Counted from the stretch's first letter, positions 1 to 61,938 are shown. The stretch: DNA of 64,000 nt from Leucoraja ocellata (GCA_036785375.1 JAWMAR010000051.1:1426001-1490000), one strand, 5' to 3'. Notes: a model not told the origin generated them from the letters alone. A program made the numbers and translations.

Positions 1-2355
1 TGTAAATTGGAAATGGGCCGTGTAGCAGAGAAATGTAAAGATTCCTTCAGTGTTAGAATGTGTTGAATAATTTAAGATCTGACATAAAAAAAACTTGGTT
101 ACTTTTGCCATTTAAAATATGTCCGAAACTCTCTGCAATACACAAACACATTGTAGCCTCAGATGTGTCCTTTTCTTTAAAGCTGAAAGACATAAAATTA
201 CTTGTTGTAAGCACTAAGCCAAATGGTCAAACCAATCTAAATCATGCATTTTAGACAGTGTCTGTTTTCTTTTAATTGGCTTGTTGCAACATGACATTTT
301 GAATCATCTGGTGAAATTATATAGTACCTTACTGAAAGAAGCTTCTTTAGTTTGTTTTGATGGAAGAACAATCAATTTGATAAGTGGTAGCACATCTCAT
401 TGTCTCAGATTAATTATACTAATTGCTTGATGTTAGCCTTCAGAACAAGCCGAGCCTGAAGAGGAGTGAGGCTGTGGCCCCCCTTTGCATGCAGTGTGAG
501 TGCCAGTTCCAGTTGCCTGCACACAGGCTGGATACAGCATTGTTAGAATTCAGGTCTACACCTTCGCTGTCAGTACTGGTTCTGCTGTAGTCAAGTTCCT
601 GCTCTGAGCAGAGCAAATCTTTGCTCAGTTAAGTGAGCCTCAGTCACTGTTGCACTTTCAAAAGGCTTGGCCAACAGCCCAGCTTTGTTAGGCTTTTGGA
701 GCTTCACCTGAATGAGATATTGACGGAGCTTTGTTACCTGAACATCTCCAAATAACACGGGGGGAAAAAAAGATTTGATAATTAAATTGTTATAGAATAA
801 CAAAGTCTGCGGATTTCGAAGCCTGTGGCCTCCAGAGGGATTGTCATAGAAAACATAGAAAATAGGTGACTATTTGGTCCTTCGAGCCTGCACCGCGTTA
901 TGGTTAATTTTGACTGGAATTTGCTTGTGTGAGCCCTAGATTCCAACATTTGTACACTTTTGTTGATTTTATTCAACATTGCTTTATTTTCTTGAGGTGA
1001 GCCACCATTGTGATGACACTATTCGTTGCATGAGGGACTCCCATTTAAAAAAATAATAATTCTGAAGTGGTGTTTGCAGCCTCACACAGTATCTTATGAA
1101 GCATCAAAGTGTTGATTAGCAGAAAGACAAACCCATTCTGGGTGTGGCACAATTTCCTGCCCTCTTGTAAATTCAGAACAGCTGAGCAACCCTATACATC
1201 TGAAGCACCTGGTCTCTAGGATTGGGTTACAGCAACTTTATTGTGTTGTTAAAGGTCAGTACTCGGCATATGCTGCATCTCTTCAGAGGTGCTTATCTAG
1301 CAGCTTATTCCATGATAACACATTTGCCGACTGAAGTCACAACTAACCATAAAGAATGAAAAGCATTTCAAGCATCTCACCTTCCCCAAAACAAGCGTGC
1401 AATAGTAACAAGCTCTGCCCCTGACATGCAGCCCAGTGCCTTTAAATTTACTGTATGAAAGGTGGGATTGGCTCTTTAAAAGTTACAACTGGCATCTAAA
1501 TTTGAAATAGAAACAATTGGAAGAATTGTTGTATAATTAATGTATTATCCCTTGCTTTCATGTGCAATATTGCAGCTTCACGCCAGGAAAAATTTTAATT
1601 GGAAAGCACTGTAGCAAGCAAAAACTTCCCTTATCGAATCATCTTTGTCGATCAAATATCAGAATGTACCAGGGAATGAATTCATGCCTCAGCAAATGCA
1701 CTGTTAATTGTGCATAAGCATCAATGGAATGTCAATTAAATGACATGAATGGTGTCTATGAAAGTTTTTGATATTTTCACACCTTGGTTTACTTTCCATA
1801 GTCTCTTCTCTTATTTCACCCCTTCCTCCTGTAGTAGATGAATTTTTAAACAAAGCTGTGCACAACCCTATCACCATAACTTTTTTTAAATTTGCTTAAA
1901 TTTAACCCAGGTCAGATTACCTCAGGTTTCACTGTGAATAAGATCGACAGGTTGTTTGCTCTGCTTCCCTTTAGCTTCCCACTTGATAGAATGTGTAAAA
2001 ATTGCTTCCTGATATTCTAAAGTCAAATTTTTGATGCAAAGGACGATAATGTGCTTTAGGAACAGTGGGATTAGCTGTGGATTGCTGTAAAATAAAATTA
2101 GTATAACCGTGATATACAAATGGCCTTGTTCTTTGCGTTAAACCTGCATGCTCTACTTTTCTTACTTGAAGCTTGCGTAAGACTGATAGCAGTCAATGCA
2201 AGCTGGTAATCTGAATCGCGATCCTTCAGCTCAATATAGTCATAGAGTTATGAAGAGATACAGCCCAGAGTCAGGCCCTGTAACCCGCGTGCCTGCAATG
2301 AACATCAAACACTCAATTACGCTAATAAATCCTTTTTTTTAAAAAGGATTTTAAA

Positions 2356-2420
2356 GCCTATTTCCTTCGCTCCATGGATGCTGCTGCACCCGCTGAGTTT
2401 CTCCAGTTTTTTTGTCTACC
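2356..2420 (+). mobile_element. Short PLE 3' fragment
   Basis: GCCTATTTCCTTCGCTCCATGGATGCTGCTGCACCCGCTGAGTTTCTCCAG is nearly identical to 60229-60279. Confidence 0.8.
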
Positions 2421-4877: not shown

Positions 4878-4951
4878 ACACATAAGAGATTGCAGATACT
4901 GGAATTTTGCACAAAATCAAGCTGCTGGACAAACTCAGTGGGTTAGGCAGC
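4878..4951 (-). mobile_element. Short PLE 3' fragment
   Basis: TGCAGATACTGGA...TGCTGGACAAACTCAGTGGGTTAGGCAGC is the reverse of the family tail. Confidence 0.6.
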
Positions 4952-5039
4952 TCAGTGCTGGAAAATGTTCGTCCAGCAGTCTGTTTGGATCCATTAGCAC
5001 TTGTTTATCAGAACAAGTGTGCACAAAGTTGTTTTAAAC

Positions 5040-5835: not shown

Positions 5836-6384
5836 CAAAGATCGCTTTAACAATCATTTCCAGGTGAAATCGTGTACACCAGGAACTTGGGGGAGGTACA
5901 TTTGCACACAATTCACCCGAGCACAGCTGATCTATTCCTCTGTGTCAGTTAGTCATCTAATAACATCACAAGAAGAGTTTCCTCCATTGTCGACATCAAT
6001 TGAAGCTCCTGGCTGCAGCCTATAATTTGCGCTGAACACTCGCAATGCAACTAGAATTACATTGTGGTGCTTTGTAGCATTTGTCTCCATTTGCAAAGGG
6101 AACTCTGCAGACTGCTGGTGATCTAACTGGGCTCACTGCAGGCTCTTCAAGCAGCTTCCAAAGTCTGCAGAATGGGGTTAATCCAACAGGGTGCGTTTCT
6201 TTTTTCAGCATTTAGTGCTGAGATACTCATTCCGTTGGTTCAATCTGTACAGTGGTCAGTTTATATCTGCACCTAGAAGAATGTAATTTTAACATGAATA
6301 AAAACCCATTTCAACCCGACTAGAATTTAGAATTAATTAAGGCAGAAAAAAAGACAAATGTAGGGAGTCATAATGTACAAACAC

Positions 6385-6540
6385 GAAACTGCAGATGCTG
6401 TTACCATAGAAAATAACAAAGTCTGAAAAAATCTGAAGACGTGTCCCGACCCAAAACAATACCTATTCATGTTCTGCAGAGATGCTGCCTGAACCGCTGA
6501 GTTACTATATACAGCAATGGTTTCCAATATTTGTGTTTTA
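6385..6540. mobile_element. PLE-derived fold-back fragment
   Basis: Reverse tail AACTGCAGATGCTG, then CTGAAGAC...CCCGACCCAAAAC and GATGCTGCCTGAACCGCTGAGTTAC. Confidence 0.7.
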
Positions 6541-6779
6541 GTGCCTTTAATACTACATTGTTTCAGGTGAGGGTTCTGACTTGAAAAGTTGCCCCTTTGA
6601 CTTTGACCTACATAGATGAATTTAATAGCCCTTGAAGGCTCTTGTACCAAGCGTCTAGGCTTCAGACTGTTGCCCTGGGCAGGTCGAGGAAGCGGCCTGG
6701 GATGGCTGGATATTGGGTATGGGTGCATATTCTTTCTAAAGGATGTAGACTAGAATTAATACAGAAAATTAATTCAATG

Positions 6780-7733
6780 TAACATTAGCAAATTTGCAGA
6801 TGACACAAAGCTGGGTGATAGTGTGGACTGTGAGGAGGATGCTATGAGAATGCAGGGTGACATGGACAGGTTGGGTGAGTGGGCGGATGCATGGCAGATG
6901 CAGTTTAATGTGGATAAATGTGAGCTTATCCACTTTGGTAGCAAAATCAGGAAGGCAGATTACTATCTAAATGGTGTCAAGTTGGGAAAAGGGGAAGTAC
7001 GACGGGACTGGGGTCCTTGTTCATTAGTCAATGAAAGTAAGCATGCAGGCACAGCAGGCAGTGAAGAAAGCGAATGGCATGTTGGTCTTTATAACAAGAG
7101 GAGTTGAGTATAGGAGCAAAGAGGTCCTTCTGCAGTTTTATAGGGCCCCAGTGAAACCACACCTGGAGTAATGTGTGCAGTTTTTGTCCCCTAATTTGAG
7201 GAAGGACATTCTTGCTATTGAGGGAGTGCAGCGTAGGTTTACCAGGTTAATTCCCAGGATGGCGGGACTGTCGTATGCTGAGAGAATGGAGTGGCTAGGC
7301 TTGTATACTCTGGAGTTTAGAAGGATGAGAGGGGATCTTATTGAAACATATGATTATTAAGGGTTTGGACACGATAGAGACCAAAAGCATGTTCCCGATG
7401 TTGGCGGAGTCCAGAACCAGGGGCCACAGTTTGAGAATAAGGGGTAAGCTATTTAAAACGGAGATGAGGAAACACTTTTTCTCACAGAGAGTTGCGAGTC
7501 TGTGGAATTCTCTGCCTCAGAGAGCGGTGGAGGCAGAGAATTCTGAGATTCCAGAGGTTCTCTGGATACTTTCAAGAGAGAGCTAGTTAGGGCTCTTAAA
7601 GATAGCGGAGTCAGGGGATATGGAGAGAAGGCAGGAATGGGGTACTGATTGGGGATGATCAGCCATGATCACATTGAATGGCGGTGCTGACTCGAAGGGC
7701 CGAATGGCCTACTCCTGCACCTATTGTCTATTG
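6780..7733 (+). mobile_element. CR1-type LINE (HER1-like), 5'-truncated
   Basis: ISKFADDTKLG RT motif at 6784, WQMQFNVDKC, VQRRFTRLIP, RTRGHSL, WNSLP. 3' tail GAATGGCCTACTCCTGCACCTATTGTCTATTG. Confidence 0.95.
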
Positions 7734-7737
7734 CCTA

Positions 7738-7958
7738 AAATGCTGGAAATACTCGGCAGGTCAGGCCACATCTGTGGAAAGAAATAATAAAGGTAATATT
7801 TCAGGAATAAAATCCTTCCTCACCCTTGTTCTGATGAAGGGTCATTCACCAGGAACATTAACATTGTCTCTCTTCCACTGATGCAGCCTAAACTGCTGAA
7901 TGAGTTTTAGGGTTTTCTGTTTTTTCTTAAATTTTGGGTTTCCAGCATCTCCAGTTTT
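7738..7958. mobile_element. PLE-derived fold-back fragment
   Basis: TGCTGGAAATACTCGGCAGGTCAGG arm, GTTCTGATGAAGGGTC...GGAACATTAAC hammerhead remnant, TTCCAGCATCTCCAG tail. Confidence 0.7.
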
Positions 7959-8208
7959 TCATTGGATTTTCACATACATGATGCAAATTGACGGTTTTCT
8001 CATGAGAAAGGTTGTCAGTGGTCTGAATCTGCACATTGACGACTTCTCAGAGGAAGATGCAGTAACCTGCTGACACTCCATCATTATTTCAATATCAAGA
8101 ACCAGGGCTGAGCTAGTTTACAGTCTCCCGGCCATAGGTCCCTTCAACCTTATTCTTTTCCTTGCTCTCTGTGCTCTCATTAAAGTGTAGTGCGTGAATT
8201 GAGGGTGG

Positions 8209-9290: not shown

Positions 9291-9620
9291 CAAGGAGCTG
9301 CAGATGCTGGAATGATGAGTAACAGTGTTGGAGTAACCCAGTGAGTCAGGCAGCATTTTCGGAGAACATGGACAAACAACTTTTCAGGTCGGGAAAGGAC
9401 ACAAAGTGCTGGAATAACTCAGCCGATGAAGCAGCATCTCTGGAAAACAGGAATACACAAAAGGACATAAAATACTCCCGAGATGTTGTCTAGAGGTGCT
9501 GCCTGATCTGCTGAGTTACTCCACGCACTTTCTGTCCTTTTGTGTATTAATCAGCATTGCAATTCCTTGATTCTATATTTCAGTTAAGGACCCTTCTTCG
9601 GACTCCATCACTTTGTGTTT
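9291..9620. mobile_element. Nested cluster of PLE-derived fragments
   Basis: Three copies of the GCTGGAGTAACTCAG/CTGAGTTACTCC motif in mixed orientation. The reverse hammerhead halves TTTCAGGTCGGGA and CCCTTCTTCGGACT are separated by an inner copy. Confidence 0.7.
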
Positions 9621-11165
9621 TAAAGAAGTGGAGGTTATTGGGTCTAGAGTGAAGGGCATGGCCTCTTGGCAATGCAGAATCCTCTGTGAGAAATTGTAGG
9701 CTCTGTCCTCCAGGTTCTTAACGCCTCTTGCATGAAGCCAGGACAACTGTCAGATCACTGACCATTTCCACCCGTACTTGTGCATCAGCTTTGTCATTAA
9801 AGCATCCCAATCATGAACCTCACCTGAATCCGTTCAGGTAGGATGAATGTGTGAGTGCTGATATCAGATTCCCTGCACCATGCGACAGACTGGAGTCACT
9901 GGTGCCTGGTTTATCTTCTTGTGTCCTGCATCCCTCTAACCTTATCTGCTTATACCTTTGTGAGAATGAAAGAGCAGCATTTCTGTTAGACTGAACATTA
10001 CCATGATATGAATTGAGAGATAATCAAGTTTCCTCGAGATCTGGTCTATGAATTTTGTTGTTCTGGAGAATACTGTAACCGCCTTCTGCCACGTTCTTTA
10101 ATGTTGACCCCTGACACATTCTTTAATGTTGACCCCTGATATATCTCATGGCCGGGACCCCCTTCTTCTCATGGCCACCAAAGCCTAACATGAATATCAC
10201 CGAGCTGTCTCCCTTTTGCCTGCAGCCTCACCCTTCACCAGAACTGCCTTGCATGTGTTGCAGTTTAAGGCTGTGAAGGGGCATGTGCCTTCAAGGGATG
10301 TGCCCCAACTCTGTTTTCTTTTGCACTATATAGGAAATAAGGTCCCGTGCAGATCCTGATTTGATGCATTAATTCAGGGTGCAATTAGCGAGGCATTATT
10401 TCCCTTGGCCGTTATCGGGAATTTTTGCAGGTGATCTAGTTGAGGAGTAGCACCGTAAACAGCACGTGTTTAGTGCACCAATAAAGGGCGAAATTCAATT
10501 TCTAGCATACAAACTTAATCCAATAATAATTGATTGCTTCATTTCAACTTCGACTCCAATTCATGTTGATTTCCAATCAGAGCCTATGACTGTCAGTAAC
10601 TTATGAATAGCTTTCACATATCAGCACCAGAATGGTTAAGAAGTCTTTAAACTCTGCTTACTGCTTTATAGTGGAGAGCCATAGGTCAGAGCAGACCTTA
10701 CGGTTGTTCTGATTATAGGCTTAAATAATAAATTCCAAAAATACCCAATTTTAAGTCCAAAAAGAATCTTATGTTTTGAGTATTAAATAGCTTCAACAGA
10801 AGACAACATAGCTTAACTATGTTATTTCCAGACTTTGGTCTTTAAAGTGTTTAAGAGTTTGTGTATTTTTAGTTGACCCAGGTCAGAGATCTCAAATTAA
10901 AGCTTTTGGTTGTATCCGAAGAACAACTGGCAGACACAAATCATATTCCTAACTGCATTTTGCACTTACTGCCAACAGAGCTCTATTTATCAGTTTTCAC
11001 AGGAATGTCAGCTCTTCACACCAATGCGTATTTTCTTCTAATATCGAAAACAATGATATATAAGTTTAAGATCAAGAGTCGAGGGTGTTTTACAGACAAA
11101 CATATGTCCCGAAACTGAACAATAAAATTCTTACTTGCAGCCAGCACAACAGATATGTAAACATA

Positions 11166-11353
11166 TAAGTTTAGCACAAAAAGCTGGAGTAACTCAGCGG
11201 GACAGGCAGCATCAGAAGGGTCATTCTTCAGAATGGTCTCGACCCGAAACGTCACCCATTCCTTCTCTCCAGAAATGCTGCCTGCCCCGCAGAGTTACTC
11301 CAGCTTTTTGAGTCCATCTTCGGTTTAAACCAGCATCTGCAGTTCCTTCTTAC
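11166..11353 (+). mobile_element. PLE-derived fold-back mini-element with 17-bp TSD
   Basis: TSD ACAGATATGTAAACATA (11149-65, 11354-70). Inverted arms 11178-11212 and 11275-11309 flank GGTCTCGACCCGAAACGTCACC. Confidence 0.85.
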
Positions 11354-14300
11354 ACAGATATGTAAACATAGTACTCAGAGGTTCCAATGGACTCCCTGAG
11401 CATATAAAAAATGACACTTTGCTCGTAACTGGAGCTTCACTTCAGCGAGTGTGAAATTCAAATAAAGCGTGGTTATTCATTGGTTCTGATTTCACATCTT
11501 TTTCTTCCATCTGTCTGTGAATCAGGTGCTAATCCGTGTCCTGAGTAATGTCGGAACTACTGTGACAGCGTGCACTTATAACCGTTTTGTATTGCTGCTG
11601 AAATGCCGGTATGAAATTCCGTCAATTCACCACAATAGTTTCAAAAGTTAGCAGTGGCTTCTTAATGATTTCAATAAATGTAATTATATTTTAAAACCTC
11701 TCAAAAAGAGCATGCGTATTTATATCAAAACCATACGTACCACATATAGTAACATGAATAATAATATATATATGTTCATGTGAGCTTTACAAATAATAAT
11801 TGATTGAATGGATGTAAGGAAAAACTTTAACCAAATACAATAGTTGGCACTTTCAGCAGCTTTTGACTCCCTGCAAGCCAAGTACATATAATCATACAGT
11901 TAACTATAAATATTAGTCCCTTTCATGAAATGTAATTGACTGTTACTTTTGAAGATCACCACTGGAGTTTCTCTAATAGGTAATCTCTTAACGTTATTGG
12001 AAACAAAGTGATTTTCAGGTTTATTGTGAATCTAGGAATTAAAGCCGCAAAATTAAGTCATCGTTCCCCCTGCGTCTCACTGAAATAATCGGCAATTTGA
12101 TGTTTCTCTAAATATAATGCAAAGTCGGCATCTGCCTAGATATAAAATTATGGGACTCTTATAAACTATCAATCTTGCAGACCTACCCAAATAGAAGAGA
12201 CTATTTGAATTGCTGTTTCTTGATCAAGAAACACAAAATTGCTTAAATATGTATATTGCTTGAGAGGAATGCAGGATATGCCCAGCGATGGTAAAAAAAA
12301 AAGGCTGACGCACACACGACGGACAAAAAATTGACTTGTGTGAGATACAGGAGCCTGCAAGGACTTTAGATGGAAATCTGCACTGTCAGGGTGGAACGAA
12401 AAGAACACACAATTAGAATCGTCAAGTAAGAGTATTCACATGCACAGTGAAGTTATACAATAAACAGCCTTTGTCGATAATTACAGTTATAAATACGTGG
12501 ATTGTTTCAATGCCAGGATTTCGGAATATTAGGAAAACCATTATGTCTTCATTTTTTTTGAAGAGAGGTAACTACTTTGATAAAAATGCACATCTTTCTT
12601 TGAAAGCTTTTTTTTAAACAGAAACGTTCAATGTTTTAAAAACATATATTTTGCAACTCATAAGTGAGCCTTTGCATCAATAATGTATTTGCTGGGCATT
12701 TTGACATTGTTGAAGGTCAGTAATAATAAGAAATATTGATACAATTCAAAACTTTTGAAAATGCTTATTGCTTAAGACAATTGCGTTTTGGGCTGGAGCA
12801 TGAAATTCCATGCATTCTCCCTTGAATTGAATAGACCTGTATAAATGATCGAAAGCATAAAAGGTTAAAGTTAGAGCACTGTGCAAGAAACTTTAATGGC
12901 ATTTTCTTGTAGAACACTTATTCAGTGGGTGGAGCATTGGTGACTGCATGAATGCTCTGCAGTTCGGCTGTGAGTATTGAACTGACAAGCTTTATACGGG
13001 ATTAACAGAGAAACCCTAGAATTTGAGTGTTGTTTATCATTTTAAAAGAGTCAAATGCAGTAATCTTTATTGTTGTGGGGGATTAGGGTTAATTTGGATT
13101 TGCTTGATCTTTTTCCAGAATTCTCTTATTCTTAATTCTGCAGCCACTGTAATGCCAAAACGCTTCATTGTGTGATCTTGTACATTGGCCCTTTCAGTGC
13201 ATATTGTTATGTGATGCAATCAGGCTCTGTGGTGTACAGATAAATGCCTGTTTAATATTGCAAGCCAAGTTGCAAAAATAGCTTTTAAATCAAAACTACA
13301 GTATGACTTTTCAGATTTGCTGCTAAACCTGAAACTCCTTTTTCAGGGCAGATACCTTTTCATTCTGGTCGATTGGAGCTGCTTGAGCTGTTTATACAGT
13401 GGTCTCTCTATATTTATCCCATTGTACAATGGTTGCACTCATTGAATTGAACTGGCAAGAAACAACTTACGTTGGCCAAACTTATGAAAGACAATTTAAT
13501 TGTATTACTTTAAATGAAAAATTGAACAGATTGAAAAATATTAATAATCTGAGAGGCATTATTTTGTGTTTTTTATTTCAATTGTTGCTTGTTTTCTATA
13601 TTTTCCTGAAATGTTGTATATTGATGGAGCTTCTGTGATCGTGAAAAATCATAACTCAAACAACTTAATGCTGGCAAGGTAAACAACGGTGGTTTTTCTG
13701 TGAGCTGATGTGGTCCTCTCCCCTTATCCATCTTCGTACAAAGTTTATTTTTTAATATCTTTCCCTGTAAACATTTATCTTAAAAATGATTAATTATATA
13801 AATATTAATCGCTGATCAAACAATTCTGGCTTTGAAATAACAAATTAATTCAAGTATTTAATTTTTTTACATACACTTTAGATAAGTTTAAAAAAATCGT
13901 AAATTGAATTTATACCAGGAGTCAATCGATAAATTAAAAAAAAAATAATTAAATGGTCTACATTACGGTTAAAATTTGGCCTGACTTACCATCATTTCCT
14001 CTTTGATGTGTGATCCATCAAGTTAACCATGAATGGCAAATAAAGGAATGTTTTGCTTCCAGTACATTAAGAGTTCATGTTGCACCTTTCAAACCTGTTT
14101 CACCTTTCTCAGTCATGCCCAAATCTCTATTGACAATACAAACATTGGCTGCTGTTTGGGAGCTCTTGATTATTGACCCAAAGGTTACAGGAAGGTGCCA
14201 AGGTAGTTTTAACATCTAGTGCCAAAGAAGGAGGGCATTTCTCCACACTTGAGGTCACGTCCATAAACCAGAGAGAATAGTTTAGCAACCACAGCCAACA

Positions 14301-14476
14301 AATTGGAGCCCATGAAATCTTATTGCCCACGATGTACAAGTATTTTCTAAAGAAAAAGTGTTTTTGATTGCTGAAGCCAGGTACTGGGCAATAGTTTGCA
14401 ACATATCAGTGGGCAATTAGGAAATTATGTGTACATATTTGTTTGCCTGGACATATTGTAAATCTAAGAGGCCTAA

Positions 14477-14988
14477 AGTGCCTGTCCCACTTGGGCGACC
14501 TAATCCGCGAGTTCTGGCCACTTTGCCCTCGACTCATACTCGCTACATGGTCGACACAAGGTCATAGGAGGTCTTCGTAACTCTCCTTCATGCTCGAGAG
14601 TGGTCTCCGCGTACTCAAGGCCTCAGCTAGGTTGCGGCGTTTTTTTCAATATGTTAATAAATGCCTGCGAGTTAACAAAAGGTCGCCATAGCAAAAATCA
14701 ATACTCATAGGTTTAGTCGCAGTAGGTCGGCATGTTAGTCATAGGTAATCCAGGGTAGTCGAAGGTAGTCGTAGATAGTCTTCATCATAGTTGAAGGGAG
14801 GTCAAAAGAGATCGAAGGAGGTCTTCTTCACTCTCCACTATTCGGTGTCCAATTTTCCCGAAGTTAGTCATAGCTAGTCGAAGCTGGTGTCCAACATAGT
14901 TGAAGGAGGTCTCCTACATAGTCGAAGGAGGTCTTCAACATGTCATTTTTTCAAACTCTGCTAAACTCGCCCAAGTGGGACAGCCCCT
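14477..14988. mobile_element. Non-autonomous PIF/Harbinger-type MITE (512 bp)
   Basis: TAA TSD (14474-76, 14989-91). TIRs AGTGCCTGTCCCACTTGGGCGA and TCGCCCAAGTGGGACAGCCCCT. Internal degenerate TAGTCGAAGG(AGGTC) repeats. Confidence 0.85.
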
Positions 14989-15624
14989 TAATACTGACAG
15001 AAGTTAGTCCACAAGCCTCATTCAGGAAAGGTGTTGACTTGACTTCATCACTCTTCGGTCCTCCCAGATTGGGGAAGTTAGAGTTGGAATAGAGTGTGGG
15101 AAGATTGGATAACTGTCCCTCGATCCAGCAGGAAGGGAAAAAAAACAAATTTCTAACACCTTCCTTTCATTGCATATTAGTATAAGCCGTCCCAGATAAT
15201 ATGTTTTACACCTAGTTTACACCCATATATTGAAGGCAGCCCAAACAAGTTTATGTTATCCCTAGTATCCAATGCTTTCACTTACACCAGGAGTTCCCAA
15301 CTGTAGTTGCAACATAACCAGTTAAAGAAAAAAAAATCCAAAGTTATCAAACAAGCTACCTTCCAAGGCCCACATTTAGCCTTGGATATTGGTCACACAT
15401 CCCACCCCATCCAGTGAAAGACAACACGCTGACTACTCCCAATTGCCCACTCTGTCAGATATCCCATCCCTATTCACGCTACATCAATGAAGCACATATA
15501 ATCTCAAGGCACAGGAGTGAAGACAGCACTGGCCTAATGTCTTACTGATACCCAGTGACTGAAGACCATGATGCGCTTCTCTAACTTGTGTTGCTTTCTA
15601 TGTGCAAGACTGCAGGAGTTCCCA

Positions 15625-17015: not shown

Positions 17016-17289
17016 CTAATTATGGACCTTCATTATTGGATGGGGCAGTTGCTCAAGCAGTAAGCTATTATACCCTTTCACCTGTTTAACTCCTTACTTT
17101 CTTTAATGCAACTGTGCGCAGGTGTCAGTTGAAATCAGGCATCACACAGCAAAAAATGTCAAGTATCAGGGGAAAATCCTCTTTTATTCTGAAAATAGTG
17201 AAAATACAAAACACACTATTCAAAGGAGTTGATGATTTTAAGGTCATAAAAGAGAAGGGAATGGAATGGAAGGAAATGATGATGGATTC

Positions 17290-17712
17290 AGAAAACAACA
17301 AACGCTCAGCAGGCCATGTAGCCTATGTGAGAAAAAACACATTTCAAATCTGGGGCTCTGCATCGGAACTGGGAAGGAGGCAAAGCATGTTAGTTTTCAC
17401 TAGCAGAGGAGGTGTGGGGGGACTGGTGAGAACAAAGGGAATATCTCTGATAGAGTGACCAATGACCTAATTTAGTTCTTATTATATCAAAGATATTCTC
17501 TTTGTTCTCGCTGCCCACCCCCTCCCACGCTGTTCCTCCAATGCTGCCGAACCCTCTCTGCCACTGAAAACAAACTTGTTTTCTCTCCCTTCCAGTCCTG
17601 ATGAAGAATCCCAAAACTGAAACGTCAGTTTCTCTTTCCACAGATGCCGCTGGACTGGCTGAGCTATTCTTTTAGCATTTTTTCTTTTTATTTCCGATAT
17701 CCAGCATCTGCA
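17290..17712. mobile_element. Old PLE-derived long fold-back element
   Basis: Imperfect inverted arms at about 17300-17453 and 17484-17665 (for example GAGAACAAAGGGAATATCT / AGATATTCTCTTTGTTCTC), each with a hammerhead remnant. Confidence 0.7.
17594..17630 (+). ncRNA. Degenerate hammerhead motif in an old PLE-derived fold-back
   Basis: CTGATGA (17598-604) ... GAAACGTC (17619-26); stem II is decayed. Confidence 0.45.
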
Positions 17713-18716
17713 TTTTCTCTTTTATTTTGAAACTGTGATAGAGGTAGGTGAGGAAGGATGGGAGTGGGGCAATGAACCAGTGGGGCAGAGTGTTTTTCTG
17801 TGCTGTACATTTTAAGTAATCGATGTGAAGTTGCATCACCATCAATAGCATTGATCCATAAATGAGTGCTCTATATTTAAAGACTCCAGCATATCCTTGG
17901 GAGAGTTATATCTGTGTTCTGTGCATTTGTATGCAGTGCATAATATAATTCCTCAAAACTGATTTTTAGATATTCACTGTAACAGCAGTGCTATTTTGTG
18001 TTGAAAGTTAAAATCTGTACTCTATTATCTTCATATCTAATTTCACACATAATTTAGATTTTCTTCAAGAATGTAAGCACAGTGGAGAATTGGTCAACTA
18101 TTATTGGCCGTTGCCACCTTACATAGATTTTGTATTGTCAGACAAGTGGGGCCTTTGAACATATAGTAATGGCCTTGTACATATAGTAATGAGTACAAGG
18201 CCATAGGAAAAAAAACATGCAGTTGTATCAGAATGAAGTAAGCTGCCATTTGAAACCACTTAAAATGTCAGTGACTACATTAAAGCTACCTAAAAATTGA
18301 TTTTTATTTTGTACCAGGTGACTTAATAAAACTTTCTTTTCTGCTTTCCTTCTTTCCGCCTCACATTACAACTGTAAAAAGATTGTCATTTAATACATCC
18401 AAAGAAGTTGAAAAGGTTAATTGATTTATTCAATAAATATATACAAGGTGATCCAAGTCGGAAACTATTGTATTTTCTTCTGTATTCCTTCCTTCCATTA
18501 ATGGGTGTTATATGTTGTCTTGTCCACGCCCACCCAATTTCACATTCTGCATATCTTTTTACTAACTTCCATCTGAGTGCAAAACATATTTTGCCTCCAA
18601 CCATTGATCACAAATTCACCACTGTTATAGAGAATCATGCCATTTATAATAAGTGAAATGTCAAAACTATATATTTAATATATCCTTTCTTCCAAATGTA
18701 AAAGCATTTTTGCTTT

Positions 18717-19045: not shown

Positions 19046-21374
19046 ACCCAGATCTCAGGATTCAACATGAGGAAATGTGCAAAATTTAAAAAAGACGGAT
19101 TGTGTGTAAATAAGCTTCCACGCATATATTCAGTGTGTAAAAAAATTAAACAGTAAATATAAAATGGCTTTCAATCCATCTCCTCCTAACTATTGATGTT
19201 CCTCAACCACTTTGTGATCAACGATGGCATATTTTTATGCATCTCTGCCTCTTCCTTAGCACTAAATCTTTGTTGTGGGCATTTTATTTCTCCTGCGTCC
19301 CAAGTCTAATCCTCCTTGTGAGTGCTATTTATCTGTGCTCGTGTCAGATGGTGATACTTTTCAAAACTCTGAAATGATTGCTGTATTTATGTGGAATTTT
19401 GCGAACAAACTCCTGTGAGAAAGTTAATCAACTGACGGATTTATTTATCAACTTATTTGCATTTGTTGTAATATGTTTCCAAAGCATAATTTGTCGTAAC
19501 ATCATTCAAACACTTCATATGTTATCGTGTGAAAAATATTAATGACAGTGCGACATAGAATGTTTCTCATTCATTTATTTTTTAAGCGAAGATCCTTTAA
19601 ATTACGACATTTTTTTTAAGAACCTTGAAAGCCACTTCCAGAATGCAGTGTAGAATTCAGTTTAAAACCCAGGGATTCTTCCAATTTTGGAATACATATT
19701 TTGTATTCTTTAGCACTTTCTCTTTTTCTCTTTAGATCTGGTAAATAGAAATTTTATTGGTGAGTAACTGTATTGTGATATTGTTTATTGTACAGTACAT
19801 GTATTTTCAATTTGAATTATAAATATATTTTGAGACTGAAAGTGCAACATAGGATGAATAAATCATTTTAAAGTGCATCCATAAATCTGGCAGTTTCAAA
19901 CTGGCGGGATAAAGCTACCCTTCATTGGGGAAAGGTGGCGAAGAGTTATAGTAATTAACCCATTACTGCTATTGCATTTGGACATTTCATCTTGAGCATC
20001 TCTTAGTGTGTCTAGTTAGTATTTAAACCGTGCCAGATGTGGTTTCATTATAGGTATTGTGACTATTGTGCAGCATACATTTTATAATAATGTGTTGGAT
20101 GGGACATGACGTTAAATTAAGTTTATAGAACACACTGAATATATAACTAAGTAAGACCAGTTGATTCTTAACAATGTAAAAAATAAGTTGTCAGAAAAGA
20201 TTGCAGAAATGTTGCCAAACAGATGCGAAAGGATTAAAGGATTAACTTCAGGGTCAGGCCTATTCACTTGCTAATATATTCATGGCGCTAATGATAGGAC
20301 AGTTCACACCTACTGTCAACTAGAAGCAGAAAACGGTTTAGCGTGTTTGTGTGCATTGAGGTTTTAAGTCACAACTAGTGTATTTTGACATTTGATGAGA
20401 CCCAGCCATAATGGAAAAAAAGAATAAGTCGTCTCAAAATACTGTCTTTTGAAAATGGGTTGACATTTGGAAATTATATACTAATCGGATTAAGAAGCAT
20501 AATAGTAGGATGAAAAATGGTTTTCAGTTTATTTCTGTAATTTCTGATTTTCAAGTTAAAATAGCACAAAAATGTGCACCATCATAGATTTCAGCCTAAA
20601 GTATTTAACAGTGAAGAGGAGACACTTAATCCCAGTGGATGGCAGTATGCTGCTTTTGTATGAAATCACTGTAACTAAAACCCTAGATTGATTTGGAACA
20701 TCTTATCTCATTTGTTATGTATATTGCAATTTCCCATCCAATATATTAACAGCAACATGGTATTTGCAGCAGACTTGGCCCTTGCGTTTCTCAAGAACAA
20801 TGGTGCATGCTAATTATCTCCTGATATTAAAGTATAACATTGTAAAGTTCCTTGTTAAAAAGTGGTGAAAACTATCAGACGTTTTGAACAATGTTATAAA
20901 TAAGTGGAAAATAAAGCGATACTTAAAGGATAACTTTTGGTGCTTTGGTATCGTGTTGCAAACACAAATAGAATGGACACACATCTGATGTCATTGTAGG
21001 TTTCATTGATGCACAAGCATTGGAGGATATGGGTCAATGGTGCTGCAGATTCACCCAGGAAATTGGACACTGCTCTTCCTTAATTTATGGAGCTACATAG
21101 ACTTTTTGTTTGGAAGACTGGTGCTCTGAAAATTGAATCGATAGTAAACCTGTTGTGGAAAAAGTATGATTTCACAAGGAAATGTAGGCGATATGCTTCC
21201 ATGGCATTGTGGTGTTGCCTTACAGTAACGAGTGGAATTGTATTTGTTGTAATTTGCTGGAGGGATGGAGGTAAATCCATATCCAGAATCTCCTTTCCGT
21301 CTTGTTTTACTCATAAGCTGAACTCTTCACAAAGGTGCTATAATCAGTAAAAGAATAACAATGTGCACCAAAAG

Positions 21375-21650
21375 CAAGAAGCAAAACACTAGAGGAATTC
21401 AACAGTTTAAGAAGTAACTGCAGATGCTGGAAAAATCGAAGGTAGATAAAAATGCTGGAGAAACTCAGCGGGTGGGGCAGCATCTATGGAGCGAAGGAAT
21501 AGGAACTCAACTGGTTAGGCAACATCTGTGAAGGAAAATGGACAGGTGGGGTTTCAGCATGGGGTAGGGTCCTGGCCTGAAACGTCACCTATCTGTTCCT
21601 CCAGCACTTTGTTTTGCGCTCAGGATTCCCGCATCTGCCGTCTCTTGTGT
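21375..21650. mobile_element. Old PLE fold-back with a younger PLE 3' fragment (21404-21500, minus strand) nested inside
   Basis: The inner piece is the reverse complement of 60230-60327 and is flanked by AGGAA(T/C)TCAAC. The outer piece carries GGGTCCTGGCCTGAAACGTCACC. Confidence 0.75.
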
Positions 21651-23081
21651 CAACAAAATGCACTTACATATATTGTAAGTTGTATTTTGTATTTGCTGTT
21701 GTGGCTTGTTCCATGCAACAAATGTGCTGAACATTACCCTAACGAAAGATTTGGAGATTGTTTCTAAGTGAATTCAGTATCATTTTCATATTTTGTAATG
21801 AGGGAAAATGTGTTTTTTTTTAAATAACGATCTCATTGGGACAGGGGAGAATGAGATACCAAGCTAATTATTTTTTCAACCAAATAGTGAATATTCAAAG
21901 TTCATTTATCCTCCCCAGGGAACCTTTTTGCCGCTACAATTAAAGTCAGTATTTTTTTTTCACATTGTATATATGTTAATTATTACATTTACAAAGTAAC
22001 GGAATTAGTTGTATATGTGCTGCCTGATGGAGCAGAGAAATAGTGGCAATGTTCCTATGAAGGCCTATACTGTTATCAAGTAACGAGAAATATCTATTTT
22101 TGTAAGCCATATCATCAAATGTAAGATGCAGACCCCTCTACAATTACTGGCTGTGACCAGGAGGACCGTGTTCATCCAGGCTCGCTGGGAGTTCTCCAAG
22201 GTAATTGAAATTCTACCTCCATAGAGTTCAGATGAGAAGTGATATGAAGATGTGGGAAAACCTGAGCTGAATTGATTTTTTTTCCCCTTAATGTTTGGAC
22301 AAAGAAATAACTTAGCTAAGTGTAGCAGAGATGATAAGCGCATTCAGTAATGGTAGATTAAGAGGCCTGCATCAGTTAACACAGACTGTATTTTATTCTC
22401 CCTCTATGTGCTGCCATGTTTAGATTGGAGATTAATTGCAATAGAATTACTGTACGTCTGTTTGTTTTTTTAACAATTGCAAATTACATTAAACAGCCAA
22501 TGTGTTTTCTAATATGATTGTTCTTACCTGATAATTGGGATGGCGCCACAAGAGATTTTGATAAGAAATTCATAAACACTCTTTTATGAAGCCCTCGTGA
22601 CTTCATTTTGTGACTATCTAGAGTGACAAATTATTTGAAGAAAGCAGACATACACACAAAACACAATGCTCTGTTTCTTTCAGCGTTATGGCTCTTTGTT
22701 TATTTTTTCAAATATTTGCCCTGTGTTATCTTGCATATGATGAGGAATATCATGAAATGCTATACAGCAGCAATGTTTCCTGGCTAATTTATTTTTTTCC
22801 TGCTCCTCCTGTAGCCTGATAGCTGTACATGGGCAAAAAGTATGAAATTGTTATCTGTTCTTGCAATTAGAGATCAGCCTTTTTCATTCCAATCCTATTT
22901 GAAGATTGATTTGATTTTCGTCCAATAACAAAAATATAACAGAACACAGCTTGGGTTTTGTGGAGATATCTGTAGCTGTGAAGTGTTAATTGCAATTTAG
23001 ATAAGGATTAGAAGGACCATATCTCAGTAGACCACATTTATTTGCAAGTGCTGTACTGTAATGCATCAAGATTTCTTGGGG

Positions 23082-23550: not shown

Positions 23551-23710
23551 TGTTTAAGAAAGAACTGTAGATGCTGGAAAGATCGAAGGTGAAGTTAGAC
23601 CCAAAATGCTGAGTAACTCAGCGGGTCAGGCAGCATCCCTGGAGAAAATGGATAGGTGACGTTTTGGTTCGGGACCTTTTTGCAGACTGGTCATGACCCA
23701 AAATATTCTT
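23551..23710 (-). mobile_element. PLE-derived mini-element with 15-bp TSD
   Basis: TSD CAGTTGTTT(A/G)AGTGA (23536-50, 23711-25). Reverse complement of the PLE 3' end, with a degenerate hammerhead at about 23655-23688. Confidence 0.8.
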
Positions 23711-24304
23711 CAGTTGTTTGAGTGAGTTGGGCAGAAGGTGTATTCCACTTTCCTAGCACAGTACAGTTTTATTTACATGCAAAATGCCATGGAAATACCA
23801 GTTATTGTGTCCGATGTATGTTTTAATCTGCTATTGAATTATTATTTGAGGATTGTCCATTGCTTCTCTTGCCAGAAAATAAAAAAAATTACATATGTAC
23901 AACTAATAAAATTTACATTAATTAAATTGAACATTACAGTAATTTTTTTCCTCTGGTCCCCAAGAGATAATAATGTCTGAACTGATTTTATCCATTCGGT
24001 TAAATCTGATCTACGCTCTATTTGAGAAAGAACTTCATAATTTTAAATCCAGCCTCGTGAGCGTGCCTGTTTTAAATAGGTTGAGACCGTCGTGTGGCAC
24101 TAAACAGGGTAGAGGAGAGTGTAAACATAGGTTTCTGTGGGATTGGGGGTCACAATGAGCTTACAACGTACAGTAATTGAGGGGGGAATATCATCATGAT
24201 GGTTTTGATGGCCGCTCAGACATGAGAAGGTTGAGAACATTGGGTAAGGGGCTGGGGTAAATCCAACACTACCTCCCTGAAGATAATCACAAAGATATTA
24301 AAAG

Positions 24305-24500
24305 GAAATTGCTGGAGTAACTCAGCAGGTCAGGCAGCACCTCTGGTGATGTTATGGTCGAGATCCGAGTCTGAAGAAGGGACTCGACCTGAAATGTCAC
24401 CTATTAATTTTCTCCAGAGATACTGCCTGACCCATTGAGTTACACGAGCATTTTGTATCTATCTTCGGTGTAAATCAGCATCTGCAGTTCCTTCCTACTA
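24305..24500 (+). mobile_element. PLE-derived fold-back mini-element
   Basis: TGCTGGAGTAACTCAGCAGGTCAGGCAGCA, then the hammerhead, then CTGCCTGACCCATTGAGTTAC, then the tail CAGCATCTGCAGTTCCTT. Confidence 0.8.
24368..24401 (+). ncRNA. Hammerhead motif in a PLE-derived fold-back element
   Basis: AGT-CTGAAGA-AGGGACTCGACCT-GAAA-TGTC-ACC; the catalytic boxes are retained. Confidence 0.55.
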
Positions 24501-42077: not shown

Positions 42078-42255
42078 ATGTAGAAACAAAGACCTGCAGA
42101 TGATGGTTTATACCAAAGATAGACACAAACTGCTGGAGTAATGCAGCATTTATGGAGAAAAAGGGTCGGTGATGTCCCGATCCGAAACGTCATCTATCCT
42201 TTTCCTCAGGAGAGGCTGCCTGACCCGCTGCGTTACTCCAACAGTTTGAGTCTAC
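42078..42255. mobile_element. PLE-derived fold-back mini-element with 11-bp TSD
   Basis: TSD AATGCATTGGA (42067-77, 42256-66). Arms TGCTGGAGTAA and TTACTCCAACA flank GTCCCGATCCGAAACGTC. Confidence 0.8.
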
Positions 42256-48392: not shown

Positions 48393-49092
48393 TGGGCCTG
48401 TCCCACTTAGGTGATTTTTTCAGCGGACTGCCGCGATTGTCAAGTTGCCGGCAGTCGCCTGAAAAACCGGCAATTGGAACGGCGACTGTCAGAGTGGAAC
48501 ACACTCACAAACACATCGCTTCGTTTACCAGCCCGTGTGAATTTTTTAGACAGCGCTCCCCCCGCTTGCCCTGTCTAAAAAATTCACACGGTGCAAACCC
48601 AAGGTGATACAGACACACACCGTGATGAACAGGAAGGTTGTCGCTGTAATTTAGACAGCTAAATTAAAAGAGGGGGGGAGAAGGAGTGGAGACAACTTTT
48701 AAGAAGCCAGAGAAACACGGCTGTGAAGCTCGGCGAACATTTAACTTATCCTTGGTTCTGAAAACTACTGCTTACCTTTTTTTTTCCCCAATGACCCAAT
48801 GAAATTCACCGGTCGGCACCGGCTACAACCTCCGAGGACCTTTGGCCTCCTGGCAACCCACCGATGGCTTGAGAATTCTCGCTACTCTCCATTCTAGTCG
48901 CCGCTAATTTTTCAACATGTTGAAAAATTCACGGCGACCATAATGAGACCGCGACTAGTTCCCAGAATGCGGGAACTCCTCGCGACCATGAAGGCGACTC
49001 TCCAGCAACCACCCGCGAACATGTGGCGACTGTGTGACGACAGCAAAGTCTCCCGCAGTTGCCTAAAAAGTCGCCTAAATGGGACAGGCCCT
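48393..49092. mobile_element. Non-autonomous PIF/Harbinger-type MITE (700 bp)
   Basis: TAA on both flanks (48390-92, 49093-95). TIRs GGGCCTGTCCCACTTAGGTGATTTTT and AAAAAGTCGCCTAAATGGGACAGGCCCT. Repeated GGCGAC/GTCGCC motifs, CpG-rich, non-coding. Confidence 0.85.
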
Positions 49093-52000: not shown

Positions 52001-52640
52001 TATTTCCATTTTGTGCTGTCAATGCAAAATTTGATATCACTCTGCACTGAAGCCAAAGATTTGGTTGTGTTTTTCAAATGGGGGTTAATTTGTGTCAATT
52101 GAAAAATTATTAAATCAATCTTTGGGGAATTTTGCCTTTGTACTTTTTTTGTTACAACTTTTCTATTAGCATTTTGAGACAACCCACATTTAAATCTCAA
52201 CGTGTTAACTGCAGTCATTGCTTTTAAATCTTTCCGTGCTGGTTTTGTCCAGCGTATGAGTATTTAAAAAACCTTGTAAGTCTTTCTGCCATAATCCAGG
52301 GCCGATTATACACAGATAGCCTATCTTTCTTTGAACTGTTCTCGCAGCGAATGTGAGAAGTCATTGCTCGGGTAGAATTTAAGTGGAAGAACTGATCTTG
52401 GGAGGGAATAGTTTGTGTGGATTGTTTCTATTCTTTCTGCTCCTCCTCCACCCGACCCCCTCCCCTGCTTTATGTTTTGTTTACCACCTGTCTCCAGTTT
52501 TGATAAACCTCTGTCGTGCCCTTATGCTGATTATGTTCGTGTAGAACAACTTGTATTGACTAACGAATGAATGATGCCTGGTCCCTTACCTCTCAGGAAG
52601 GCCCTAAAGAATGTTGTTTTTAATTCAATGCTTTCCACAG

Positions 52641-53053
52641 GCTTCTCTGCAGAATGTCAGCAAAGGATCGACACATTGATTCGAGCTGCTCATCATACAT
52701 TAAGACAGAGCCGTCCAGCCCTGCCTCACTGACAGACAGTATCAATCACCACAGTCCAGGTGGCTCGTCGGACGCCAGTGGGAGCTACAGCTCCACTATG
52801 AATGGACATCAGAATGGCCTGGACTCACCCCCGCTCTACACCACCACCACCCTGGGTACCAACGGCAGCTCCCGTAAACGATACGACGACTGTTCAAGCA
52901 CTATAGCCGAAGACTCGCAGACCAAGTGCGAGTACATGTTGAACTCCATGCCTAAAAGATTATGTTTGGTCTGTGGCGACATAGCATCAGGATATCACTA
53001 TGGTGTGGCTTCATGCGAGGCATGCAAAGCCTTCTTCAAGCGCACTATACAAG
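52641..53053 (+). CDS. ESRRG: ESRRG exon: A/B domain and first zinc finger (413 nt)
   Basis: Acceptor TTTCCACAG ends at 52640 and donor AAG|GTAATG starts at 53054. Encodes [29 protein letters not shown]...[35 protein letters not shown], with the ERR P-box CEACKA and the IKTEPSSP phospho-SUMO motif. The short-isoform ATG is at 52654. Confidence 0.98.
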
Positions 53054-53176
53054 GTAATGCCCCCTTCATATTCTATCACGTATCCTTGCAATATTTGTAA
53101 TAAAGGCAAAACAGAAAGCCACGTAAAACATAAAACCAAGAGAGTTTTAGCACAACTTTGCTTCAGTCAGCTTCTG

Positions 53177-58490: not shown

Positions 58491-59343
58491 TTTCATGAAC
58501 TGCTCTCAGATCTCAGTTTTGCTTCACGGTGACAAGGAAGAAAATCTGCCATATCTTGTTAAGTTGTCATGTGTTTCTGCAGTGGCTGTTAGTTCATTTG
58601 CCCGTGCTCAAATCTGTTGCTTGATAGAAGAACTGTTGTGTTGCTTTAATATTCATCTTCTTCTTCTTCCTTGCCAATCTGCTAGTGGAGAGTGGTTGTG
58701 GATCAGCTCGTCCGCAGGTACAGGTTTCACAAGAGGTAACTACAGCCTGGCTGCCAAAGCAAGCCTACTGAGAGCAGCTGTCTAGCCTCCCCCTATTGCA
58801 CTTTACCCTCTGCAGACCCTCCAAATCTTCCTGGCTCAAGACATAAATCATCATCCTGTCGCTAGTTCTTGGTTTTCGTATTATGCAATTTCTAAATTCA
58901 TGCAAAACTCTAGAACATGAAGATAAATAATGACCAACATAAAAAGATTTATTTTCTCCACATTTTAACATATAATTTTAACATTTCATCACTGCGGTAA
59001 TAGCTTCAGTTAGGGACAGTATTATGATTACTGAAACTATATATATACTGTAAATATGCAAATTAATAATTGCCTTTAAATGCACTTGTAATTCCTGACC
59101 ATGTTAATCAGTGGACGTTAATATTATTATCTACCCATATAGTTATTTGGTACCTTATATTTTAAGATAATTCAAACATTTGTGTGGTAATTTTCATTCT
59201 GTTTATTCAATGGACGTTGAGGAAGTGGCTAGTTAAAATTGGCCTAGTGATTTAGTTTCTTCCTTAGACCTGCTCACCATTTTCAACCTGCACTGCTTAT
59301 CCGACAGCAAAGACTGGAGGCGTTCCACACCAGGACATCTGAA

Positions 59344-60084
59344 ATGTCCTCACTATTCAGGGAACGGGGGTTCCCCTCCTCCACCATAAATGAGGCTCGC
59401 ACCAGGGTCTCTTCCATACCCCGCAACACTGCTCTCTCTCCCCATCCCCGCACTCGCAACAAGGGCCGAGTCCCCCTAGTCCTCACCTTTCACCCCACCA
59501 GCCATCACATACAAAAAATAATCCTCCGTCAGTTTCGCCACCTCCAACGTGACCCCACTACTAGCCACATCTTCCCATCTCCCCCAATATCTGCCTTCCG
59601 CAAAGACCGCTCCCTCCATAACTCCCTTGTCAATTCTTCCCTTCCCTCTCGGTCCACCCCCTCCCCGGGCACTTTCCCTTGCGGCCGCAGCAGATGCAAC
59701 ACTTGTCCCTTTACCTCCCCCCTCAACTCCTTTCAGGGACCCAAGCAATCGTTCCAGGTGCGACAGAGGTTTACCTGCATCTCTTCCAACCTCATCTATT
59801 GCGTCCGCTGCTCTAGATGTCAGCAGATCTATATCGGTGAGACCAAGCGGAGGTTGGGCGATCGTTTCGCCGAACACCTCCGCTCGGTCCGCAATAACCT
59901 AGCTGACCTCCCGGTGGCTCAGCACTTCAACTCCCCCTCCCACTCCGCCTCTGACCTCTCTGTCCTGGGTCTCCTCCATGGCCACAGCGAGCAGCACCGG
60001 AAATTGGAGGAACAGCACCTCATATTCCGTTTGGGGAGTCTGCACCCCGGGGGCATGAACATCGACTTCTCCCAATTCTGTTAG
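59344..60084 (+). pseudogene. PLE ORF remnant: RT thumb/linker, Cys-rich motif, GIY-YIG endonuclease
   Basis: CGRSRCNTC linker, NLIYCVRCSRCQQIYIGETKRRLGDRFAEH, VAQHFN, RKLEEQHLIFRLGSLHPGGMN. The RT core was lost by 5' truncation. Confidence 0.92.
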
Positions 60085-60197
60085 TCCTTGCTGTCTCCTC
60101 CCCTTCCTCAGCTCCCCTGCTGTCTCCTCCCACCCTCCAGCCTTCTGGCTACTCCTCCTTTTCCCTTTCTTGTCCCCACCCACCCCCACCCCTGATC

Positions 60198-60231
60198 AGT
60201 CTGAAGAAGGGTTTCGGCCCGAAACGTTGCC
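60198..60231 (+). ncRNA. Minimal type I hammerhead ribozyme motif in the PLE terminal repeat
   Basis: CTGAAGA (60201-07), extra A, stem II GGGT-TTCG-GCCC, GAAA, then C-G-TT (loopless helix III, NUH = GUU). Helix I is very short. Minimal hammerheads are a known feature of PLE pLTRs. Confidence 0.7.
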
Positions 60232-60384
60232 TATTTCCTTCGCTCCATAGATGCTGCTGCACCCGCTGAGTTTCTCCAGCTTTTCTGTGTAACCTACGAT
60301 TCTCCAGCATCTGCAGTTCCCTCTTTAACAGCAAAGACTGGAGTCTGTTCATCTGGTGGGACCTTCAATTAAAGAGCAAATCAA

Positions 60385-60512
60385 TCTTTAAATGGCTCGA
60401 TTGTAATCGTGTTTTGTCTTTCTGCTGACTGATCAGTACGCAACAACAGTTTTTCCCCGTACCTCGGTACACTTGACAATAAATAAACTAACTAACTAAA
60501 CTAAACTAAACT
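60385..60512 (+). mobile_element. Non-LTR retrotransposon 3' end with (CTAAA)n tail
   Basis: CGATTGTAATC...GTACCTCGGTACACTTGACAATAAATAAACTAACTAACTAAACTAAAC shows reverse-complement similarity to 3203-3300. Confidence 0.6.
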
Positions 60513-61460: not shown

Positions 61461-61938
61461 GATCCGAAACGTCACACATCCATTCTCTCCAGAGATGGTA
61501 CCTGTCCCGCTGAGTTACTCCAGCATTATGTGTCTATCTCCCACCCTCCCAGTCATCCTGCTCCTTTCCCCTCCTTCCTACCTACTTTTCCATCCCCGAA
61601 TCACTCATTTTCCTCTTCCCTCCCCTCCCAGTTCATTTCCACCCCTTTGGTTCTACATTTTCTTTCCTTTGACTATACATTTCACTCTTCTTATCTGAAA
61701 CCCATTGTCTCCTTTTCACCTCCAGTTCCTATCACTTACTCCAACCATGTGCCAAACGAAACCCTCTCACCTGTATCCTCTATCACCTGCCAGGCATTGT
61801 CTCGCCTCCACCTCTCTGTTCCAGTTTCTCCCCCCTCTACTACTATCAGTCTAAAGAAAGTTTATGACCAAAAACGTTGCTTGTCCATTCCATCCACAGA
61901 CATTGCCTGACCCGCTGAGTTCCACCAGCATGTTGTGT
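61461..61938 (+). mobile_element. Tandem PLE-derived terminal-repeat fragments
   Basis: GATCCGAAACGTCAC...CCGCTGAGTTACTCCAGCA, a C/T-rich spacer, then ATCAGTCTAAAGAAAG...AAAACGTTGC...CCTGACCCGCTGAGTT. Confidence 0.72.

Follow-up and report, generated by a model that had tools for sequence, protein, structure and literature searches.

The 64,000-nucleotide (nt) stretch of Leucoraja ocellata DNA analysed here (GCA_036785375.1 JAWMAR010000051.1:1426001-1490000; hereafter the window) is non-coding vertebrate DNA surrounding an exon of an oestrogen-related receptor (ERR) gene, and it holds short insertions derived from a Penelope-like element (PLE), among them the focal element at 11149..11370. 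A preliminary description had recognized seven of them, at about 6385, 7738, 11166, 21375, 23551, 24305, and 42078, as pieces of the PLE terminal repeat (pLTR) in opposite orientations, and all seven proved to be head-to-head pLTR copies. Three further fold-backs were found at ~4884, 9392, and 17270 (Table 1). The insertions are real, abundant, and ordinary as a class of element rather than a new class, and they are most likely one-off truncated insertions, not a new self-spreading element. Positions in the pLTR are numbered from the C of the hammerhead ribozyme core CUGANGA as +1 (60201 in the longest copy), with cleavage predicted after +28; inner and outer arm ends were read partly by eye, on decayed copies.

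Structure and Parentage of the Insertions

The Penelope origin proposed for the insertions is borne out by a 5′-truncated parent-type copy at 59320-60327, in which the same pLTR, its minimal hammerhead intact, comes after a GIY-YIG open reading frame (ORF); the fold-back pLTR matches 60198-60327, behind the ORF. In the window, this copy keeps the ORF 3′ end alone. The ORF fragment matches GIY-YIG with a Pfam E value of 0.0018, under the curated cut-off, and has a C-x4-C-x2-C linker motif at residue 120, ahead of GIY-YIG at residue 158. A zinc-finger-like linker between reverse transcriptase and nuclease is a feature of Neptune, common to Nematis (PMC8557442; here and below, statements taken from cited papers refer to the passages of them that were covered), and the motif in the parent copy would fit either. 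The hammerhead at 60201 passes the minimal pattern, with 9 of 9 tested pairs possible across the core, stem II, and helix I. In a covariation check over eight mostly decayed copies, 61% of cells are paired, a level reached by 61 of 500 shuffles, with slid controls at 13-36%; an Rfam search of the window returned no hammerhead up to an E value of 1 and four weak unrelated matches. Contigs from three organisms hold the empty insertion site, indicating that the copy is recent. An ORF search of metagenomes gave 153 candidate stretches, none confirmed, and found no relative of the parent ORF; pattern scans of viral contigs and metagenome contigs gave no match. Nearby, 61461-61940 is a partial tandem in which a pLTR piece (+16..+93) is followed directly by a 3′ untranslated region (UTR) and a second pLTR of another subfamily.

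The focal element combines a tailless inverted arm with a tail-bearing sense arm, with inner ends (antisense/sense) at +49/+8, and the sense CUGANGA core is missing from it. Its fold has an energy of -77 kcal/mol (z -8.6), a stability equalled by 0 of 200 shuffles. The reversed core reported at its junction is indeed present, as a 9-nt exact match to antisense -1..+8, but it starts at 11224-11225, not at 11226. None of 5000 random 22-mers matched -1..+8 equally well, and 49 of 5000 matched anywhere in the pLTR.

Target-site duplications of 17, 15, and 11 bp had been described, and they hold: 11149-11165/11354-11370 (17 bp, exact), 23536-23550/23711-23725 (15 bp, one mismatch), and 42067-42077/42256-42266 (11 bp, exact), with 2 of 300 random boundary pairs equalling the weakest of these scores. 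Duplications are thus present in three of the seven elements as well as in the parent copy; none above background was found at the other four of the seven. Five fold-backs (7738, 9392, 11166, 24305, and 42078) have one outer end at ~+84..+95 and the other at ~+122..+130, that is, an inverted 5′-truncated pLTR with a tail at one end, and this layout with a 30-40 bp tail is the typical form of a PLE insertion (PMC8557442, PMC3846280, PMC8969392). In most of the ten fold-backs one arm is nested in the other; in 42078 and 6385 neither arm contains the other. The 6385 element does consist of head-to-head pLTR pieces as described, but its arms share no overlap and so form no hairpin. Deletions are frequent in the arms (11166, 24305, 42078, 21375, and 9392). 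The old 17270 fold-back has a fold z of -8.7, and its arms are identical at 147 of 198 aligned letters.

Table 1. Positions of pLTR-derived features in the window; inner ends are antisense/sense in pLTR numbering
Feature	Position	Strand	Inner ends	Remarks
Left target-site duplication, focal	11149..11165	.		17 bp; exact repeat of 11354-11370
Inverted pLTR arm, focal	11166..11214	-		Without tail; ~+95 to +49
Scrambled junction, focal	11214..11233	.		20 nt; short sense-like piece +5..+13 plus antisense piece -1..+8
Sense pLTR arm, focal	11233..11353	+		Hammerhead stem II (+8) to tail end (~+128)
Right target-site duplication, focal	11354..11370	.		17 bp; exact repeat of 11149-11165
6385 element	6380..6506	.	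+96/-3	Inverted tail end +126..+96 joined to sense arm -3..+75
7738 element	7736..7960	.	+2/-3	Old-subfamily fold-back
21375 element	21369..21651	.	~+19/~-3	Old fold-back; younger pLTR nested inside
Younger pLTR copy in 21375	21404-21503	-		Ends at +30..+33; 11-bp duplication, 1 mismatch
23551 element	23551..23710	.	-3/+10	Minus-strand arm with tail, reaching -3; short sense arm, +10..+28; duplication of 15 bp
24305 fold-back	24300..24497	.	+9/-3	3-bp stem II; distal helix I lost
42078 fold-back	42078..42255	.	+25/+11	Non-nested arms +125..+25 and +11..+93; 11-bp duplication
4884 fold-back	4884..4985	.	~+46/+70	Pivot outside hammerhead, downstream
9392 fold-back	9292..9603 (fold-back 9392-9575)	.	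+32/~+18	Pivot in hammerhead
17270 fold-back	17270..17720	.		Old, 450 nt; pivot ~125 nt upstream of hammerhead
Non-inverted copy 2356	2344..2418	+		Starts at +29 (predicted cleavage site; 2356); 12 extra letters ahead; 13-bp duplication
Parent-type element, 5′-truncated	59320..60327	+		ORF end, C-rich 3′ UTR, hammerhead 60201-60228, pLTR and tail; 16-bp duplication
Pyrimidine tract and CAG	60192-60200			
Pyrimidine tract and CAG	61842-61850			
Pyrimidine tract and CAG	17585-17597			
Pyrimidine tract and CAG	~17362-17380	-		

Arm Ends and the Helix I Boundary

The strand switch does fall in or near the hammerhead, as had been reported: at least one arm has its inner end within it (-7..+35) in all seven of the original elements, and both arms do in five. 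Breakpoints are also non-uniform along the pLTR, 20 of the 28 arms in the window ending in -7..+35 (a weak match at 6570 and three with E > 1 were left out of this count or merged). However, the preference is not peculiar to inverted copies. The hammerhead is the end point of non-inverted arms no less often than of fold-back arms (6 of 8 vs 14 of 20; Fisher p = 1.0), so the clustering is a property of the pLTR 5′ end, and the ribozyme marks the place of the pivot because it lies at that edge. Two of the three added fold-backs, 4884 and 17270, pivot outside the hammerhead, the latter being a counter-example. None of the ten fold-back junctions in the window is repeated (0 identical), and they derive from several pLTR subfamilies; those of 23551 and 24305 are similar (-3 with +10 or +9).

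Stops per 100 arm-bases number 0.34 at +70..+36, 2.2 at +35..+1, 15.8 at -1..-5, and 0.41 farther upstream. Of ten arms extending as far as -1, six end within 5 nt (p ~2e-4 against the in-hammerhead stop rate, a post hoc comparison). The hammerhead contains near-palindromes at -5..+4 (8 of 9 positions) and +11..+25 (14 of 15) whose register matches the observed pivots, and the 42078 crossover falls in the second. Three ends lie at or near the predicted cleavage site: 2356 at +29, 21503 at +30..+33, and the outer end of the 23551 short arm at ~+28.

Three contig sets (82,516 to 137,927 contigs per set, some events remaining uncounted) and one RNA run were aligned to 59261-60400. The great abundance claimed for the pLTR is confirmed in these public contigs, where summed depth just after the core is 5-7 times the ORF peak; this is not copy number, and the depth step at the hammerhead is not usable as such, since other subfamilies match only there. 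Among the 24 of 4078 loose-end rows listed, the commonest 5′ boundary, seen in three organisms, is where helix I begins, ~30 nt upstream of predicted cleavage, and 10 of the best 18 rows lie at 60195-60199. Five listed rows at 60198-60199 (-3 and -2; 262-367 contigs each) have A/T-rich flanks with an agreement of 0.33, as unrelated host DNA would. Listed rows at 60195 are C-rich and are likely UTRs of other subfamilies, and two at 60196 (291 and 327 contigs) terminate with +5..+12 in reverse complement, forming a palindromic pivot centred on -1. Twelve of 545 joints were listed with their intervening letters, and 10 of these 12 pair +35..+41 with -1..+11, the kind of joint being unspecified. 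Splicing was weighed as an explanation for skip joints ending at 60193-60202 and set aside, given the missing intervening letters and the divergence of other subfamilies over this stretch.

Four divergent copies retain upstream sequence, and in each the core is preceded by a pyrimidine-rich tract and CAG. Set beside consensus motifs, the tract with CAG is similar to a 3′ splice site and also agrees with the initiator consensus. Penelope of Drosophila virilis has an intron that terminates at the helix I 5′ end (PMC4209133) and a promoter situated within the pLTR (PMC2377424). No common upstream exon occurs among the listed loose ends of the contig survey, and for this reason the evidence leans towards a start site or strong stop rather than a splice junction. 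All three contig sets have a consensus G just ahead of -2, and a G precedes -3 in two window copies; that this G derives from a cap is no more than possible. Modest novelty may lie in two features: the sharp boundary at a CAG motif resembling both initiator and splice acceptor, and the non-nested arms, suggestive of two separate priming events.

The RNA run was poly(A)-selected and came from a related organism, and 11,136 of its reads aligned. Most are 80-95% alike, and 88 of every 100 continue into dissimilar sequence. No place in this run has many shared read starts or ends that would mark a discrete RNA unit, and the reads look like host transcripts carrying pLTR copies. Over 59261-60200, reads from the ORF part show a 1.2-4-fold excess of first-mate-plus orientation, and those from the pLTR part are about even between strands.

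Origin of the Fold-Back Copies

We consider it probable that the insertions are two head-to-head pieces of a PLE pLTR, each insertion made as a separate event by the parent enzyme and likely inactive from the outset. The 11-17 bp duplications would reflect a staggered cut by the GIY-YIG nuclease. Reverse transcription would begin from two internal RNA sites ~35-40 nt apart, near +93 and +130, with each target end priming its own cDNA, which would leave one arm with the tail and the other without, in keeping with the observed outer ends. The precedent is an anole element whose tail lies between two internal start sites and in which internal initiation occurs on both target strands in vitro (PMC11167929). 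Each cDNA would usually halt early, most sharply at -5..-2, where helix I starts, and otherwise in the hammerhead stems, as the mapped arm ends indicate; the -5..-2 boundary is probably the template RNA's 5′ end or a strong stop. The two cDNAs would then be joined head to head, perhaps aided by the short self-complementary words present in the hammerhead. The non-nested arms of 42078 and 6385 suggest two separate priming events, an arrangement that copy-back of a single cDNA cannot produce.

Several points weigh against this account. Deletions being common in the arms, later loss of the hairpin tip could have created both the variety of junctions and the non-nested arms from more uniform originals, and the arm ends themselves are partly by-eye readings on decayed copies. 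The contig survey used as its query the 60201 subfamily, which is ~78% like the focal one, and its boundary evidence comes from 24 of 4078 rows; in it the palindromic pivot at 60196 recurs many times among the listed rows, and a listed joint of 60241 with 60209, of unspecified kind, recurs in three organisms. Recurrent pivot and recurrent joint fit microhomology but also propagation. The three ends that fall on the cleavage site or close to it (2356, 21503, and the 23551 short arm) also tell against the account. A possible though unlikely alternative is self-priming, proposed for PLEs before (PMC3846280), in which a short palindrome at the pLTR 5′ edge lets one cDNA, or an antisense template, fold back and prime a copy of itself, after which the nuclease trims the second arm at the tail border. 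The two near-palindromes, the pivot recurring in contigs, and the nesting of one arm in the other in most fold-backs all suit this model, which is harder to reconcile with 42078 and 6385, unless their arms became non-nested by later deletion, and with non-inverted copies that have the same boundary. That some fold-backs yield unit transcripts which the parent enzyme inserts again, giving a non-autonomous hairpin family with shared junctions, seems doubtful. Non-autonomous PLE derivatives exist (PMC8557442; bioRxiv 10.64898/2026.07.22.740005), and the very high depth of the pLTR part, the recurrent pivot and joint in three organisms, and the similar 23551 and 24305 junctions would fit such a family; on the other side stand the ten differing window junctions from several subfamilies, the RNA reads without a discrete unit, and the fact that both arms end near presumed enzyme start sites, as expected if each copy was made afresh.

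Very unlikely, in our judgement, is a cycle like that of retrozymes, in which hammerhead self-cleavage sets the template end and the elements pass through circular RNA; the preliminary description had inferred a retrozyme-like class, with template ends or a template-switch point defined by the ribozyme site. Its support is the trio of ends around +28/+29 together with the intact parent hammerhead. Retrozymes, however, are head-to-tail tandems with working hammerheads (PMC7229834; bioRxiv 10.64898/2026.07.22.740005), and no head-to-tail hammerhead array occurs among the eight tandem-repeat rows of the window. Only the motif at 24371, in the 24305 element, passes the minimal-hammerhead pattern besides the parent, so that six of the seven elements fail it, and the hairpin formed by 24305 exceeds the hammerhead fold in stability by 14 kcal/mol. 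That cleavage sets the main end is not supported, since the strongest listed boundary is -5..-2 and none of the 24 listed rows lies at +28/+29; it accounts for a minority of ends at most. Cleavage is dispensable for the anole element in vitro (PMC11167929). A composite account, which we regard as speculative and improbable as a whole, would have both cut target ends prime separately at two internal sites and run to a fixed RNA 5′ end at helix I, whether start site or splice junction, before joining head to head; the minority of ends at +28/+29 would be footprints of cleavage in the animal, and a palindromic-pivot subset would spread as a hairpin non-autonomous retroposon. If true, the fold-backs would preserve a trace of the second half of the Penelope cycle, so far missing.

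Relation to Known Elements and Other Features of the Window

The window elements share with canonical endonuclease-positive PLE insertions the head-to-head pLTR, a 35-40 nt tail on one arm, the duplication, the junction palindrome (reported at an inverted PLE junction in PMC3846280), the pLTR hammerhead, and a parent with a C-terminal GIY-YIG. They differ in having arms too short to include ORF, duplications of 11-17 bp vs 8-10 bp in rotifer examples, and a sharp boundary at the helix I 5′ end, which is not described in the passages covered. The PLE minimal hammerheads of PMC4209133 have the same core, extra nucleotide before stem II, and palindromic loopless helix III, and they too abound as truncated single motifs and in opposite-strand pairs, the pairs lying 100-700 bp apart and being ascribed to truncated PLEs; the D. 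virilis intron end in that paper is at the same place as the boundary here, and cartilaginous fish are not named in the parts covered. Poseidon of Anolis carolinensis (PMC11167929) likewise has two internal start sites bounding its tail, with both target strands cut and extended, but belongs to another clade and has an ORF that starts in stem II. Non-LTR retrozymes (PMC7229834; bioRxiv 10.64898/2026.07.22.740005) resemble the window elements in being non-coding, 150-450 nt long, derived from a PLE pLTR, and of type I hammerhead ancestry, whereas they are head-to-tail, with working ribozymes and circular RNA, and the window elements are head-to-head, with ribozymes broken or buried.

Twin priming produces LINE-1 5′ inversions, in which inverted and direct segments lie inside one duplication. 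The 6385 element has the same non-overlapping layout, whereas in most window elements both arms copy the same stretch, so that an RNA read twice or two RNAs would be needed. We found no published account of fold-back PLE copies in sharks or rays, or of twin priming in PLEs; the search left subscription literature largely outside, and the supplements of PMC4209133 and the 2026 preprint may list such families. The formation of tandem and inverted PLE ends is still described as undefined (PMC8557442), and the helix I boundary and the non-nested arms are useful leads on this open mechanism. A genome rich in short duplication-bounded copies offers material for deciding whether self-priming or two-ended priming operates, and the same copies could show whether the hammerhead ever cuts its template in the animal.

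Twice in the 64 kb, at 21393-21511 and, apparently, at 9382-9591, a pLTR copy is inserted in an older one, and self-targeting is possible. In the second case the 9392 fold-back appears to be nested in a minus-strand pLTR copy ending at -3, the duplication not being significant. At 2315-2363, the 12 extra letters before the copy that starts at +29 continue an inverted copy of the host flank, which suggests snap-back synthesis on target DNA at the 5′ joint. Directly before the 7738 element ends a fragment (6740-7735) that we take to resemble the 3′ end of a CR1/L2-type LINE. The ERR gene exon occupies ~52624-53100 and encodes a zf-C4 domain whose best solved relatives are ERR DNA-binding domains. 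Inverted repeats unrelated to the pLTR lie at 48533-48591, 48890-48945, 14476-14989, and 54158-54264, and the first three may be parts of non-autonomous DNA transposons.

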